DNA of 10,005 nucleotides. Source: Myxococcales bacterium (GTDB lineage: Bacteria; Myxococcota_A; Polyangia; Polyangiales; Polyangiaceae). Positions 3,203 through 9,656 of the stretch are shown here, in pieces (position 1 is the stretch's first letter; each line of letters starts with the position of its first letter). The stretch covers positions 1 through 10,005 of the forward strand of contig JAYVXK010001173.1 in NCBI GenBank assembly GCA_043785265.1. Direction: 5' to 3'. A model generated the notes under the pieces. The model was given only the letters and a program-made list of their open reading frames with translations. It ran no database searches and was not told the DNA's origin. A program made the translations under genes and the position numbers.

Positions 3203-3271
3203 CCGTCCACCCGTCGCCGTCCGCCGTCCCCGTCCCCGTTCGCGTCCCCGTCCCCGCTCCCGTCCCCGCTC
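3203..3271 (-). repeat. Degenerate hexamer tandem array, G-rich on the minus strand: (GGGGAC/GGGAGC/GCGAAC/GGCGAC)n, ~11 units, in the divergent intergenic region between the lipoprotein and hemL.
   Basis: Plus strand reads ccgtcgccgtccgccgtccccgtccccgttcgcgtccccgtccccgctcccgtccccgct; its reverse complement is GGGGAC-type period-6 repeats. Same family as the arrays at 6017-6158 and 9478-9656. Confidence 0.75.
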
Positions 3272-3291
3272 TGATGCTACGGTGGCGCTCC

Positions 3292-4575
3292 ATGACAGCT
3301 CAGAAATCGCACGACCTCTTTGTGCGGGCGCAACGCGTGATTCCCGGTGGTGTGAACAGTCCGGTTCGCGCGTTTCGCGCAGTCGGCGGCGATCCGATTT
3401 TCATCGCGCACGCTGCAGGCGCGTACTTGCACGACGCAGACGGCACTCGATACACCGACTACGTCGGCTCCTGGGGGCCCATGATTCTTGGGCACGCGCA
3501 TCCAGATGTGGTGCGCGCAATCACCGACGCTGCTGCCCGTGGGACGAGCTACGGAGCGCCTACTGAACTCGAAGTGACGTTCGCCGAGAAAATTTGCCAG
3601 ATGTATCCGTCGATCGAAATGATGCGTGCAGTGTCGAGCGGCACTGAAGCGACCATGGCTGCGATTCGTGCGGCGCGCGGGTTTACGGGACGCGATGCGA
3701 TCGTGAAGTTCGAAGGTTGCTATCACGGGCACGCAGACTTCTTGCTCGTCAAGGCGGGCAGCGGCGCAGCCACCTTGGGAGTGCCGGACTCGGCGGGTGT
3801 GCCGGCAGCGGTCGCAGCCAACACAGCGACGCTTCACTACAATGACGTGCCCGCGCTCGAAGCGTTGTTTCGGGCGCGTGGCAAAGAGATCGCGGCTGTG
3901 ATCGTGGAGCCTGTCGTGGGCAACATGGGTTGCGTTCCACCCGAAAAAGGCTTCCTCGAGGCGATGGTTGCATTGTGCAAGCAATACGGAGCGGTCTCGA
4001 TTTTCGATGAAGTGATGACGGGATCGCGTGTGGCTCGCGGTGGCATGCAGTCACGTGCGGGCATCAACCCAGACATGACCTGTCTAGGGAAAATCATCGG
4101 TGGTGGATTGCCGCTCGCTGTTTATGGTGGCCGGCGCGACATCATGGAAAAGATCGCGCCTCTCGGTCCCGTCTATCAAGCCGGCACGCTCAGCGGAAAC
4201 CCAGTCGCGGTGAGCGCAGCGCTGGCCACCATTGCTCATCTCGATGACGCGCTCTATGCGCACCTCGAGGCGCTCGGAGCGCGACTCGAAGCTGGGATGA
4301 ACGCCTCGATCAAGAAGCACAACCTCGCAGCGTGCGTGCAGCGCGTCGGTTCGATGATCACACTCTTCTTCGCGAAGGGTCCTGTGCGCTCGTGGAACGA
4401 CGCGAAAGACGCCGACACCGCGCGCTTCGGCAAGTGGCACCGTGGGATGCGCGAAAGAGGCCAATATTGGCCTCCATCTCAGTTCGAAGCCGCGTTCATC
4501 AGCGGCGCGCACACGAACACGGACATCGACGCGACGATCCAAGCTTGCGACGAATCACTCGCGATCAATTCGTGA
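3292..4575 (+). CDS. hemL: Glutamate-1-semialdehyde 2,1-aminomutase (PLP-dependent class III aminotransferase), 427 aa.
   Basis: MTAQKSHDLFVRAQRVIPGGVNSPVRAF matches the HemL N-terminus. Class III aminotransferase blocks follow (GSWGPMILGHAHP, FDEVMTG, MTCLGKIIGGGLP with the PLP lysine). The track ORF starts at 3070, but 3070-3291 is a translation of the hexamer repeat (PVPVRVPVPAPVP). Start set at ATG 3292 from the homologue N-terminus and typical length. Confidence 0.9.
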   Translation: MTAQKSHDLFVRAQRVIPGGVNSPVRAFRAVGGDPIFIAHAAGAYLHDADGTRYTDYVGSWGPMILGHAHPDVVRAITDAAARGTSYGAPTELEVTFAEKICQMYPSIEMMRAVSSGTEATMAAIRAARGFTGRDAIVKFEGCYHGHADFLLVKAGSGAATLGVPDSAGVPAAVAANTATLHYNDVPALEALFRARGKEIAAVIVEPVVGNMGCVPPEKGFLEAMVALCKQYGAVSIFDEVMTGSRVARGGMQSRAGINPDMTCLGKIIGGGLPLAVYGGRRDIMEKIAPLGPVYQAGTLSGNPVAVSAALATIAHLDDALYAHLEALGARLEAGMNASIKKHNLAACVQRVGSMITLFFAKGPVRSWNDAKDADTARFGKWHRGMRERGQYWPPSQFEAAFISGAHTNTDIDATIQACDESLAINS

Positions 4576-5272
4576 CGGGCACGACCGCGTCGATCGAGAG
4601 TTTCGCGCGAACCTCTTCGAGCGTCATGGACCACATCGTCTCGAGCCAGACCGACGGCAAGAATGCTGCGCGCTTGCCTCGACGATAACCGTCGATCGAC
4701 TTGGCGATGATCCCAGGATGTTTGGGTGTGAACCTGAGTGATCCAACGAACGCGATGAGTAGCGACAGTGGTGTGCCGGTCTGCGCGTAACTAAAAGCCT
4801 GCAGAGCAATCTCACCCGCCACGTCTGGCGTGTAGCCCGTCAACACATGCCAGATGTCGTGAGTCTGTCGCATGCGCTGCGAGACATACGCGGGGATCTG
4901 CGGCAGGCCAGGCGGCGCCTGAAAGAGATCGGGGTCGAGATGATTGGTGTCGAGGAAACGCACATACTCGCGACCTAGTGTGCCGTTCGGTAGCGCGCGC
5001 AGAGCGTCGTAGTCGACATGCTTGGAGTCGATGGAGGGTTGCTCGCGAATCATTCGTCCGCCTTCGTCGGTGATGACCATGCGAGTGAGCAAATGCGGCA
5101 ACGCACGGCGACCCGTCGCGACTCCTAGCAAGAAAACCTGCTTGGTATCATCTGGATCGCGCATCAACGATACGAGAGCGCGCGCTGCGATTTTGGCTCG
5201 CTGGAGCGCGGTGCCGGTAAGAGCGGTGCGGGCGGCAAGCAACTCGTCTTCGTGTGTGACAGCGGATTCCAT
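4565..5272 (-). CDS. Coq4-family protein (ubiquinone biosynthesis protein COQ4-like), 235 aa.
   Basis: Carries the Coq4 zinc-ligand motif HDxxH-x11-E as HDIWHVLTGYTPDVAGEIAL. AGGAGG lies 6 nt upstream of the ATG at 5272. Its 3' end overlaps the hemL stop by 11 nt (convergent). Confidence 0.65.
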   Translation of the reverse strand: MESAVTHEDELLAARTALTGTALQRAKIAARALVSLMRDPDDTKQVFLLGVATGRRALPHLLTRMVITDEGGRMIREQPSIDSKHVDYDALRALPNGTLGREYVRFLDTNHLDPDLFQAPPGLPQIPAYVSQRMRQTHDIWHVLTGYTPDVAGEIALQAFSYAQTGTPLSLLIAFVGSLRFTPKHPGIIAKSIDGYRRGKRAAFLPSVWLETMWSMTLEEVRAKLSIDAVVPVTN

Positions 5273-5294
5273 GAGGCGCCTCCTGTTGGCAACG

Positions 5295-5325
5295 TTGACA
5301 ATAGGACCTCTTTGCTTGTTGTCAA
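5295..5325. promoter_or_regulatory. Candidate TetR operator or divergent-promoter element: inverted repeat TTGACAA-N17-TTGTCAA, flanked by partial outer repeat TTGGCAA...TGCCAA (5286-5334).
   Basis: TTGACAA at 5295-5301 and its exact reverse complement TTGTCAA at 5319-5325, centred in the 80-bp gap between the divergent Coq4-like (start 5272, -) and TetR (start 5353, +) genes. TTGACA also matches the -35 consensus. Confidence 0.4.
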
Positions 5326-8186: not shown

Positions 8187-8208
8187 GGTGCACTCTCCGT
8201 TCTTGGGT

Positions 8209-8227
8209 GTGCTCTCTCGAAGAGCAC
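8209..8227. promoter_or_regulatory. Perfect 7-bp inverted repeat GTGCTCT-ctcga-AGAGCAC in the MVP leader and divergent promoter region, 23-41 nt upstream of the MVP start. Candidate operator or 5'-UTR stem-loop.
   Basis: Read directly from sequence. It lies just upstream of the GGAG RBS (8194-8197, minus strand). Confidence 0.3.
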
Positions 8228-8430
8228 TAGATGTGCCGCACGGATGATGCGGGGTTGCGACGCGCACGAGCCAAGATGTGCGCGAAGATGACTCGACTCG
8301 CACGCGCCACGCTCCGGAATGGATCGCACGGCGAATGGCCTCCACTCGCTGCATGCGGTCTGGGACACGAAGGCGATGGGGCACAACCTTTCAGTCGCAG
8401 GTGCCCCCACACGATGCTAATCGCAACGCC

Positions 8431-9477
8431 ATGCTCGACCTCAACATGGACAACCTCCACGCGCTGGTGCGAGCCGTAGCCAAAAACACTGACCCGATCG
8501 AGACAACGGCAATGCCTGGCGGCGCGTCCACTCGCAAATATTTTCGCGTGACGTGTGGCGACATGAACATGGTCGCGATGTTCGTTCCCGAGGGCGGCAA
8601 ACCAGAAGAGATCGGCAAGCACCACGGTCAGGCGCGGTGGCCCTTCTTGGAGGTGCGCGATCTCCTCGAGACACATGGTGTCAACGTGCCGCGCGTGTAC
8701 GGCGAGGACGCGGACCATGGCTGGTTGCTCCTCGAGGATCTCGGGGACGACACACTCGCGAATCTTCTGCTCCGTGACCCCGCCCAGAAACGTGCATGTT
8801 ACACGCGTGCGGTGACCGACCTCGCAAAGGCGCAAAAAGCGCTGGACCCGCTTCCCGAGGGGAGCATCGTCGCGACGCGTGCGTTCGATGAAGATCTGCT
8901 TCGTTGGGAGATCGATCACTTTCGCGAATGGGGCCTCGAGGCTCGCGGACATCGTCTCGACGCGACCGACCGCGCGACCTTCGACGCAATCGCAGATCGT
9001 CTCGCCAAGCGGATTGCGAGTTGGCCGCGTGGCTTCGTGCATCGCGACTACCAGTCTCGTAACCTCATGGTGCGCGCGGACGGATCGCTCGTGTGGATCG
9101 ACTTTCAAGACGCGCTCCTGGGTCCACGCATCTACGACATGGTCGCGCTGCTCAATGACAGCTACCAAGAGTTCGATCGTCCGTTCGTCGAAGCACGTCT
9201 CGACGAATACGCTGTAGCCGTGAACATGTCGGGCGCGCGGCGGGACGCACTGAGTGTCGAGTTCGACTTGATGACGGTGCAACGCAAACTCAAAGACGCA
9301 GGCCGCTTCGTGTTCATCGATCGCACGAAGCAGAACCCCTCGTTTTTACGGTTCGTCGTGCCCACCATCGAGAAAGTCGCGTCGTCACTCGCGCGCCTCG
9401 AGGCTCACAACGCCGACATGGCGCAGTTGCTCGATTTGCTGCGCAGGATTTTGCCGGACGAAGTGAAAGCGGCGTGA
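8431..9477 (+). CDS. Aminoglycoside-phosphotransferase-fold (APH/choline-kinase-like) kinase, 348 aa. It resembles AmgK-type anomeric MurNAc/GlcNAc kinases.
   Basis: Catalytic-loop motif FVHRDYQSRNLMV (HxDxxxxN) and metal-binding WIDFQDA (DFG-equivalent). GPRIYDMVALLND and N-terminal GGASTRKYFRV are reminiscent of AmgK-family proteins. The AmgK assignment is from memory and not verified. Start chosen at ATG 8431 (MLDLNMDNL…); the track ORF begins at 8278 with a non-homologous leader. Confidence 0.6.
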   Translation: MLDLNMDNLHALVRAVAKNTDPIETTAMPGGASTRKYFRVTCGDMNMVAMFVPEGGKPEEIGKHHGQARWPFLEVRDLLETHGVNVPRVYGEDADHGWLLLEDLGDDTLANLLLRDPAQKRACYTRAVTDLAKAQKALDPLPEGSIVATRAFDEDLLRWEIDHFREWGLEARGHRLDATDRATFDAIADRLAKRIASWPRGFVHRDYQSRNLMVRADGSLVWIDFQDALLGPRIYDMVALLNDSYQEFDRPFVEARLDEYAVAVNMSGARRDALSVEFDLMTVQRKLKDAGRFVFIDRTKQNPSFLRFVVPTIEKVASSLARLEAHNADMAQLLDLLRRILPDEVKAA

Positions 9478-9656
9478 CGAGCGGAGACGGGAGCGGGAGC
9501 GGGGACGGCGGACGGCGGACAGGGAGCGGCGAACGGGGACGGGAACGGGACGGGAACGGGAGCGGGGAGGGGAGCGGGGCGGGAGCGGGGACAGGGACGG
9601 GGACGGGAACGGGAACGGGAACGGCGACGGGGACGGGGACGGCGTACGGGGGATCG
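9478..9656 (+). repeat. ~180-bp degenerate hexamer tandem array, G-rich on the + strand (GGGGAC/GGGAAC/GGGAGC/GGCGAC, ~30 units). It fills the gap between the kinase stop and the next gene.
   Basis: Read directly: …cggggacgggaacgggacgggaacgggagcggggaggggagcggggcgggagcggggacagggacggggacgggaacgggaacgggaacggcgacggggacggggacgg…. The 96-aa minus ORF 9385..9675 (SPSPSPFPFPF…) is its translation. Confidence 0.8.

Follow-up and report, generated by a model that had tools for sequence, protein, structure and literature searches.

The 10,005-bp window considered here is an entire contig (JAYVXK010001173.1) of a metagenome-assembled genome (MAG) from an uncultured, Polyangia-like myxobacterium, and within it four arrays of one degenerate G-rich hexamer, with the consensus unit GGGGAC, occupy three intergenic loci. 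The arrays, designated A1, A2a, A2b and A3, are real and lie far above chance expectation, they are non-coding and, judged by the gene order of related lineages, each of the three loci is a junction found only in the window lineage, every major gene-order change of the segment coinciding with one of them. They look like a hexamer variant of a kind of intergenic repeat that is prone to form G-quadruplexes (G4), extended here to the Myxococcota. The explanation that is favoured, and to which about an even chance can be given, is that the arrays are slippage-born spacer repeats whose G4, R-loop or hairpin structures would act as terminators or insulators of transcription and shield 3' ends, their fragility being a by-product.

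Long, degenerate, non-coding arrays of G-rich hexamers are unusual in a 10-kb bacterial segment, since short tandem repeats (STRs) are as a rule scarce in bacteria and those with hexanucleotide units lie mainly in coding sequence (PMC12699852), a generalisation with which scans of viral and metagenome contigs made here agree. With these arrays the small set of G4-prone intergenic repeat families, represented by those of Xanthomonas and Nostoc, gains a new hexamer unit and reaches the Myxococcota. The arrays also offer a testable case for two questions, namely whether G-rich repeats shape transcription ends in GC-rich genomes lacking U-tract terminators and whether they make bacterial chromosomes break and rearrange, although practical value will be limited until a complete genome of the window lineage exists.

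Sequence and statistics of the arrays

An earlier, sequence-only reading of the window had placed three arrays at 3203-3271, 6017-6158 and 9478-9656, and the period-6 calls of Tandem Repeats Finder (TRF) coincide with all three; coordinates and unit compositions are collected in Table 1, and statements about distribution refer to these 10 kb. The middle array had been described as inverted, and it is indeed G-rich on the + strand over 6017-6096 (A2a) and on the - strand over 6097-6158 (A2b). The assignment of all the arrays to a single hexamer family is likewise supported by the units themselves, which are variants of GGGGAC (GGGAAC, GGGAGC, GGCGAC and GGGT[AG]C) and which place a tract of three to five G residues every 6 nt. 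Degeneracy is considerable across the arrays (72-80% matches and indels up to 10%, by TRF) and the longest exact matches between arrays extend over 16-20 nt. The window has seven stretches in which three or more GGNN[AG]C units follow one another in phase, covering 198 nt in total with a longest run of 42, compared with a mean of 0.06 such runs and a maximum of 2 in 500 dinucleotide-preserving shuffles. Outside the arrays GGGGAC/GTCCCC is depleted in the window, three occurrences being observed where ten are expected, and the proposed confinement of the family to intergenic DNA holds within the window. The degree of conservation of the GGG core at each position is uninformative, as three of the six unit positions are fixed by the way in which units are delimited. 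CRISPR arrays, already discounted by the sequence-only reading, are excluded because they need repeats of 23-50 nt with unique spacers, whereas the window has 6-nt units in direct contact and no spacers.

Placement relative to genes

Three of the arrays begin almost immediately after a stop codon, and in each of them the G-rich strand is the sense strand for the gene that has just ended. A2a starts 5 nt past the stop of tetR, A2b some 1-9 nt past the stop of a gene resembling that for the major vault protein (MVP), and A3 at the base after the stop of amgK, ending 39 nt before the ATG at 9696 of a gene for an HPPD-like protein. A1 lies between the divergent starts of a lipoprotein gene (ATG 3148, - strand) and hemL (ATG 3292, + strand), with 54 and 20 nt left free on the two sides; it is G-rich on the lipoprotein sense strand and occupies what was ancestrally the amgK-to-lipoprotein spacer. 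The claim that every array fills its gap almost exactly, from a stop codon to a stop or start codon, does not hold for A1, which is flanked by two starts and by spare sequence.

A side observation concerns the promoters next to A1. A GATG(C/T/G)TA-like motif lies ~10-20 nt 5' of the hemL and amgK starts, at 3273-3283 and 8411-8421 in the window and also in the related contigs L059, L065, L068 and L069, and a GGCGTAGACT motif lies just 5' of the lipoprotein gene. Each is probably the -10 element of a promoter whose leader is very short, and since A1 abuts the motif of hemL it would occupy the -35 position of that gene. No sigma-70 consensus site found in a promoter scan coincides with any of the arrays.

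All six reading frames are open across the arrays, but this carries no meaning because stop codons cannot arise on a strand with next to no T (or A). The conceptual translation of the arrays as open reading frames (ORFs) drifts from GD/GS to RGRE, to GA and to GT, many units being 3, 4, 5, 7, 8 or 11 nt long, and no start codon occurs within any array. Orthologues of hemL, amgK and the lipoprotein gene in relatives have the same starts and ends without extensions, hemL beginning from the same Met, and the Pfam domain of the HPPD-like protein starts 13 residues past ATG 9696. Given units that break the frame, hexamers that are depleted in coding sequence rather than common there, and orthologues without an extension, the arrays are non-coding. 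It could be supposed that they are nevertheless coding sequence of low complexity, specifying Gly-rich peptides or N-terminal extensions of proteins such as HemL or the HPPD-like protein, as no stop interrupts the hemL frame in A1 or the HPPD-like frame in A3 and as most (GGGGAC)n/(GGGNAC)n tracts among the matches listed in viral and metagenome contigs encode Gly-X repeats (L171, L225). With open frames that say nothing and an encoded dipeptide that changes along each array, this is scarcely credible.

A coding hexamer repeat that lies outside the G-rich family is present at the C-terminus of TetR (Table 1). TetR C-termini in relatives are Lys/Arg-rich and non-repetitive, and the repeat suggests a general tendency to period-6 slippage in the window lineage.

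Gene order in relatives

Relatives of TetR at 64-79% identity were traced to their contigs and six lineages were compared. An ancestral order is seen in L059-64, in L065-67 and in the more distant L069-72, in which hemL(+), coq4(-), tetR(+) and amgK(+) are followed, after 0-2 genes, by lipoprotein(+) and GH35(+), and in which genes for a Ser/Thr kinase and a Trp dioxygenase precede hemL. According to gene calls, amgK lies 11-62 nt after tetR in these long-contig relatives. Shorter contigs (L068, L327 and P0003) show the coq4/tetR/next-gene part only, with a + strand gene 11-62 nt after tetR, and no MVP gene is found between tetR and amgK or the next gene in L059-L072, L327 or the P0003 contig. 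Orthologues of the window genes are 75-85% identical at the amino acid level, all segments being compared with the same relatives.

The order in the window is GH35(-), lipoprotein(-), A1, hemL, coq4, tetR, A2, MVP(-), amgK, A3, HPPD-like. By comparison with the relatives the block from hemL to amgK is inverted relative to lipoprotein-GH35, with A1 and A3 at its two ends and in opposite orientation, and the MVP gene with its upstream region is an insertion of positions 6159 to ~8400, lying in the interval from the tetR stop to the last ~30 nt before amgK, with A2 at its tetR-side edge and no array at its other edge (8187-8430). Alignment of the flanks shows that homology to relatives does not extend past the array borders, ending ~20 nt 5' of the hemL ATG, 30-55 nt 5' of the lipoprotein ATG and ~30 nt 5' of the amgK ATG. 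No G-rich hexamer array is present in the syntenic loci of relatives, up to ~20 kb in length, arrays of the ACGGGG unit are absent from 56 MVP loci of other Myxococcota (~1.1 Mb), and no such array lies downstream of the MVP stop in 20 relatives. The comparison with orthologous loci that the sequence-only reading had proposed therefore finds the arrays missing from the orthologous spacers and located at lineage-specific breakpoints of gene order. It also shows that the MVP/AmgK-like gene pair, on either side of which that reading had placed two of the arrays, is not an ancestral unit, as amgK follows tetR without MVP in the relatives and is never the neighbour of MVP in the 56 loci, which share no synteny around MVP.

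Not every junction carries an array. The new MVP/amgK (8187-8430, 244 bp) and Ser/Thr kinase/GH35 (665-720, 56 bp) junctions have none, and neither do the conserved short spacers between coq4 and tetR (80 nt) and between the lipoprotein gene and GH35 (7 nt). Beyond A3 a one-step inversion would be expected to bring a Trp dioxygenase or methyltransferase gene and not the HPPD-like gene, which implies either a history of more than two events or a variable region upstream of hemL. The longest exact match between A1 and A3 is an irregular 18-mer, CGGGGACGGCGGACGGCG, present in the two arrays in inverted orientation, and it fits either a crossover between the inverted arrays or one ancestral amgK-lipoprotein array that was split by a break.

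The amgK/lipoprotein junction is variable in its own right. It has no insert in L065 (3862-3864), two small genes in L059 (11741-13186) and a histidine kinase gene in L069 (11779-13454), and in the window it is the inversion breakpoint. It may be a regional insertion hot spot independent of the arrays.

Quadruplex and hairpin potential

G4 formation on the G-rich strand, thought plausible in the sequence-only reading, is predicted for A1, A2a and A3 and not for A2b, which has only G2 runs and gave no G4Hunter match. With a G4Hunter window of 25, peak scores are -2.2 in A1, 2.2 in A2a and 2.56 in A3, none of them below threshold, and runs of at least three G residues number 7, 9 and 22, respectively. 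Canonical G3+ quadruplex motifs occur in A1 at 3246-3267 on the - strand and in A3, where there are 19 overlapping ones. Regions scoring at least 2.0 have a density of 0.4 per kb in the window compared with 0.028 per kb in 1.14 Mb of related myxobacterial loci, and the longest G4-prone stretch measures 131 nt as against ~62 nt in the same loci. ViennaRNA folding with G4 allowed places quadruplexes in the A1 and A3 RNAs.

The two halves of A2 together form a long imperfect inverted repeat. The + strand RNA is predicted to fold with -101.4 kcal/mol (z = -4.4; 39 G-C, 8 A-U and 12 G.U pairs) and the - strand RNA more weakly (-69.2 kcal/mol, z = -1.6). A scan with the terminator consensus predicts no U-tract terminator at any of the arrays and finds no T-run after the A2 stem; A2 was considered as an intrinsic (Rho-independent) terminator and rejected, having a stem of -101 kcal/mol but no U-tract. 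In a search of the whole window against Rfam 15, no family matches at E <= 1.

Comparison with known repeat systems

Intergenic G4-forming heptamer simple sequence repeats (SSRs) have been described in Xanthomonas (GGGAATC) and in Nostoc (GGGGA(C/T)T, termed STRR, for short tandemly repeated repetitive sequences) (Rehm et al. 2015, PMC4692102). They are present in many copies per genome, ~90% of them intergenic, they follow closely on stop codons in the sense orientation and are found between convergent genes too, and G4 formation has been shown for oligonucleotides of both (PMC4692102). There is a sharp preference for four near-perfect units (PMC4692102), the minimum for a G4, and repeat loci in Xanthomonas are syntenically more stable than controls (PMC4692102). 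The window arrays resemble these repeats in their head-to-tail short G-tract units, in having a unit specific to the lineage, in their predicted G4 and, for A2a, A2b and A3, in lying just past stop codons with the G-rich strand as the sense strand. They differ in having the hexamer GGGGAC rather than the heptamers GGGNATC or GGGGA(C/T)T, in consisting of 10-28 degenerate units with indels rather than about four, in lying at gene-order breakpoints rather than at the conserved loci of Xanthomonas, and in their host, a Polyangia-like myxobacterium of another phylum. Within the 10 kb of the window there are four arrays at three loci, all of them non-coding. The sequence-only reading did not recognise the arrays as a described repeat family, and whilst the exact hexamer unit is indeed new, intergenic tandem G4 repeats of this kind were already known in Xanthomonas and Nostoc (PMC4692102). 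Literature searches gave no report specific to G4 or hexamer repeats of myxobacteria.

A second point of comparison lies in the arrays' position at gene ends. The repetitive extragenic palindromic (REP) elements of enterobacteria and the bacterial interspersed mosaic elements (BIMEs) are structure-forming repeats dispersed through extragenic DNA, where they follow the 3' ends of genes or separate convergent ones; they stabilise the upstream mRNA or attenuate read-through, and they are also rearrangement hot spots. REPs are single imperfect palindromes of 20-40 nt spread by RAYT transposases. The window arrays differ in that their units are non-palindromic tandem hexamers, a hairpin being possible only where two arrays face each other (6012-6156). 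Membership of the REP/BIME class was rejected for these non-palindromic units, and a Pfam search finds no transposase in the window. For GC-rich bacteria hairpin-only ('I-shaped') terminators have been proposed, and A2 is comparable to these, its GC-rich hairpin being very stable, lacking a U-tract and standing right after two convergent genes; at 59 bp, however, it far exceeds typical stems, and A1 and A3 have no hairpin partner. The SSRs of contingency loci underlie phase variation through differences in copy number among strains that alter a reading frame or the spacing of a promoter; the window arrays lie outside ORFs, and A2 is identical in three assemblies of the same strain. G-rich sequence on the non-template strand is linked to recombination in immunoglobulin switch regions, in interstitial telomeric repeats at vertebrate synteny breaks and in the pilE G4 of Neisseria, but with these the likeness is an analogy of mechanism only, an equivalent of activation-induced deaminase, telomerase or the pilin system not being known for the window arrays.

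Similar arrays elsewhere

The only other bacterial non-coding member of the motif family encountered is a period-6 array of ~210 nt at L045 7703-7914, consisting of (GTTCCC)n with GTCGCC, GTGTCC and GTGGCC units, in a distant 'Deltaproteobacteria' MAG, where it separates a membrane-protein ORF from a convergent citrate-synthase-like gene. Other period-6 arrays in the MVP loci are coding, for example a lipoprotein linker TASASV in L018 and GYGY repeats in L014 and L048. In the viral contig L171 (1770-2580) long (GGGNAC)n arrays encode small Gly-rich proteins, MKNDGRGNANG(GYGDGNGS)n, in three genes that stand in tandem, and the metagenome contig L225 (665-886) has one similar GYGDGN-type gene. 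These coding (Gly-X)n repeats share the DNA motif family (GGGNAC)n with the window arrays, but unlike them they keep a strict 6-nt phase, possess start and stop codons and vary mainly at the third positions of codons. Long (GGGNAC)n arrays resembling those of the window are also carried by the viral contigs L158, L163, L176 and L187, and patterns of an 18-mer and a 20-mer common to the arrays match viral contigs as well, 4 and 10 times. Among the matches listed, (GGGGAC)4 in metagenomes falls mostly in in-frame coding repeats or in low-GC, eukaryote-like microsatellites, and four-fold GGGRRC is abundant in viral contigs, none of these pattern matches being informative for the window lineage.

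Origin, proposed role and alternative explanations

The arrays would have grown by replication slippage (slipped-strand mispairing) and unequal exchange in the spacer DNA of one Polyangia-like lineage, a mode of growth suggested by the higher-order periods of A2a (24 nt) and A2b (22 nt), by degeneracy with small indels and by the coding hexamer repeat of tetR. In the closest relative, L068, ACGACGGGG stands directly after the tetR stop and is a possible seed of such an array. Transcripts reading through a stop codon would then gain a G-rich 3' tail able to fold as an RNA quadruplex or, at the convergent tetR/MVP pair, as the long A2 hairpin, and the displaced G-rich non-template DNA strand would favour G4 and R-loop formation. 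Such structures could make transcription stall or end, insulate the promoter that follows and shield the 3' ends of mRNAs, which parallels the action of REP elements and the role suggested for the Xanthomonas and Nostoc G-rich repeats, and the fragility and dispersed homology of the arrays could account for their coincidence with inversion and insertion.

A number of considerations weigh against this explanation. The 3'-end, insulator and recombinogenic roles are read from sequence, and the family is assessed from one 10-kb contig. The strand bias comes down to about two informative cases, A1 being uninformative as its divergent genes make either orientation sense, and the array in L045 has its C-rich strand as the sense strand of the gene directly before it. 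A hairpin at A2 is the automatic outcome of two inverted arrays of one family, and the 12:0 excess of G.U pairs on its + strand, considered as a mark of selection at the RNA level, was rejected as weak, the A-rich A2b unit having been spread by slippage. No relative closer than ~80% amino acid identity, against which conservation of the arrays might be judged, is present in the collections searched. Exact-protein look-ups with amgK, the lipoprotein gene and hemL (with two candidate starts) yielded no independent contig over A1 or A3.

The question is then whether the arrays need any role at all. They could be neutral, junk microsatellites in unconstrained spacer, with rearrangement junctions merely supplying the spacer and with G4 and hairpin potential incidental, which we consider possible, if on balance doubtful. 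Such an origin is in keeping with arrays that are lineage-specific, absent from all relatives and degenerate, with a window that holds no associated machinery or Rfam family, with the period-6 slippage seen in tetR, with conserved short spacers that have neither room for arrays nor arrays, and with other lineages having inserted genes at the amgK/lipoprotein junction without acquiring any. It is harder to reconcile with the occurrence of one G-rich unit in four arrays within 10 kb that are otherwise depleted of the hexamers, in bacteria, where STRs are few and hexanucleotide repeats mostly coding (PMC12699852), with the absence of arrays from the new 244-bp and 56-bp spacers, and with arrays that start at the first bases past stop codons. 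A causal connection with rearrangement, in which the arrays acted as drivers (G4/R-loop fragile sites or dispersed homology) or are scars (filler from the repair of double-strand breaks), would explain why all three array loci are lineage-specific breakpoints when three comparably divergent lineages keep the full ancestral order and three shorter contigs retain the adjacency of tetR and its next gene; the inverted A1 and A3 around an inverted block, sharing CGGGGACGGCGGACGGCG, and the near-palindrome of A2 at the edge of an insertion point the same way. We nonetheless judge it improbable, as it is drawn from a single locus with neither event polarity nor a closer relative for timing, as the array-free new junctions and the HPPD-like gene beside A3 do not conform to it, and as the Xanthomonas repeat loci are, on the contrary, stable (PMC4692102). 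Equally improbable is the bolder form that emerges from the comparison with switch regions and interstitial telomeres, in which recombination between A1 and A3 would have inverted hemL to amgK and A2 would have captured MVP, or in which the arrays would be break-repair filler. Were this form true, the gene order of a bacterium would have evolved with a simple repeat family as a main driver or marker.

There remains the assembly itself, in which the A1 and A3 breakpoints, though not the arrays, might have been created by an intragenomic chimera joined at repeats. The contig is from a MAG and is seen once in NCBI, A1 and A3 are without an independent contig, and breakpoints exactly at repeats resemble a mis-join. 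However, exact matches of 16-20 nt between arrays are below the k-mer sizes that decide final contigs, and these short matches, with a uniform 75-85% identity of all segments to the same relatives, make a chimera very unlikely. At A2 the Logan assemblies SRR22198255 and SRR23617254 equal window positions 4987-7460 and 4987-7412 with 0 mismatches, the whole of A2 included, and since these derive from other runs the tetR-A2-MVP junction is not the artefact of a single assembly; the copy number of A2 is identical in the three assemblies, all of the same strain as judged by 0 mismatches over 2.4 kb. Slippage-born, structure-forming spacer repeats, as described above, remain the explanation that we favour.

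Genes of the window and further observations

The window has a G+C content of ~62% and nine genes, as established from the ORF list and Pfam (Table 1). The best relative of the MVP-like protein is in a Polyangiales MAG (70% amino acid identity), and relatives of TetR include one in Sandaracinus (57% identity).

Table 1. Arrays, related sequence features and genes of the 10,005-bp window
Feature	Position	Strand or orientation	Description and source
Array A1	3203-3271	G-rich on -	~11 degenerate units: GGGGAC x4-6, GGGAGC, GGCGAC, irregular 3-, 4- and 8-nt units
A1 by TRF	3210-3268		CCCGTC, 9.7 copies, 77% matches
Array A2a	6017-6096	G-rich on +	Units GGGGAC, GGGTAC, GGGTGC, GGCGAC; 24-nt higher-order period
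A2a by TRF	6019-6090		GGGGAC, 12.2 copies
Array A2b	6097-6158	G-rich on -	G2-run units GGAGAC/GGACAC; 22-nt higher-order period, 95% identity
A2b by TRF	6095-6150		TCCGTG, 9.7 copies
Array A3	9478-9656	G-rich on +	~28 degenerate units; unit lengths include 3, 4, 5, 7 and 11 nt
A3 by TRF	9482-9651		CGGGGA, 27.8 copies, 75% matches, 9% indels, score 132
Irregular 18-mer, A1 copy	3215-3232	Read on -	CGGGGACGGCGGACGGCG; longest exact match of A1 (reverse complement) with A3
Irregular 18-mer, A3 copy	9500-9517	+	CGGGGACGGCGGACGGCG; inverted relative to A1 copy
Long imperfect inverted repeat A2a/A2b	6012-6156	+	Centre near 6086/6087; 59-bp hairpin as + strand RNA
Inverted block hemL(+) coq4(-) tetR(+) MVP(-) amgK(+)	3292-9477		Bounded by A1 and A3; MVP inserted; Pfam and gene order of relatives
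MVP-like gene with 244-bp upstream region	6159-8430	-	Inserted between tetR and amgK in the window lineage only
Coding hexamer repeat (CCGAAA)3(CGGAAA)2	5977-6006	+	Encodes PKPKPKRKRK, TetR C-terminus; outside G-rich family; TRF
Ser/Thr kinase fragment	2-664	-	ORFs, Pfam
GH35/42 beta-galactosidase gene	721-2763	-	ORFs, Pfam
Small predicted lipoprotein gene	2771-3148 (ATG 3148)	-	ORFs, Pfam
hemL	3292-4575 (ATG 3292)	+	ORFs, Pfam
Coq4-family gene (coq4)	4565-5272	-	ORFs, Pfam
TetR regulator gene (tetR)	5353-6012 (TAG 6010-6012)	+	ORFs, Pfam
MVP-like gene	6159-8186 (TGA 6159-6161)	-	Pfam MVP_shoulder, Vault_3, Vault_4
APH/AmgK-like kinase gene (amgK)	8431-9477 (TGA 9475-9477)	+	ORFs, Pfam
Glyoxalase/HPPD-like gene, start only	ATG 9696 onward	+	ORFs, Pfam

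The hemL and Coq4-family genes are convergent with an 11-nt overlap (4565-4575), the convergence being kept in all relatives, as is the divergent coq4/tetR spacer of ~80 nt. Because the arrangement is conserved in all relatives, comparison of these loci indicates a stable linkage between a bacterial Coq4 homologue and a TetR regulator.

Homologues of the MVP-like protein (50-70% identity) occur widely among Myxococcota MAGs and also in bins labelled Planctomycetota, Acidobacteriota and Clostridia, and their genomic neighbourhood is not conserved. The locus of the closest homologue (L003 12023-12090) has, right after the stop codon, a duplicated element of 23-24 nt, CCAAAGCCGACCTGGT(T)ACCCAGG, with a palindrome; this element is possibly a terminator or else some other local repeat.

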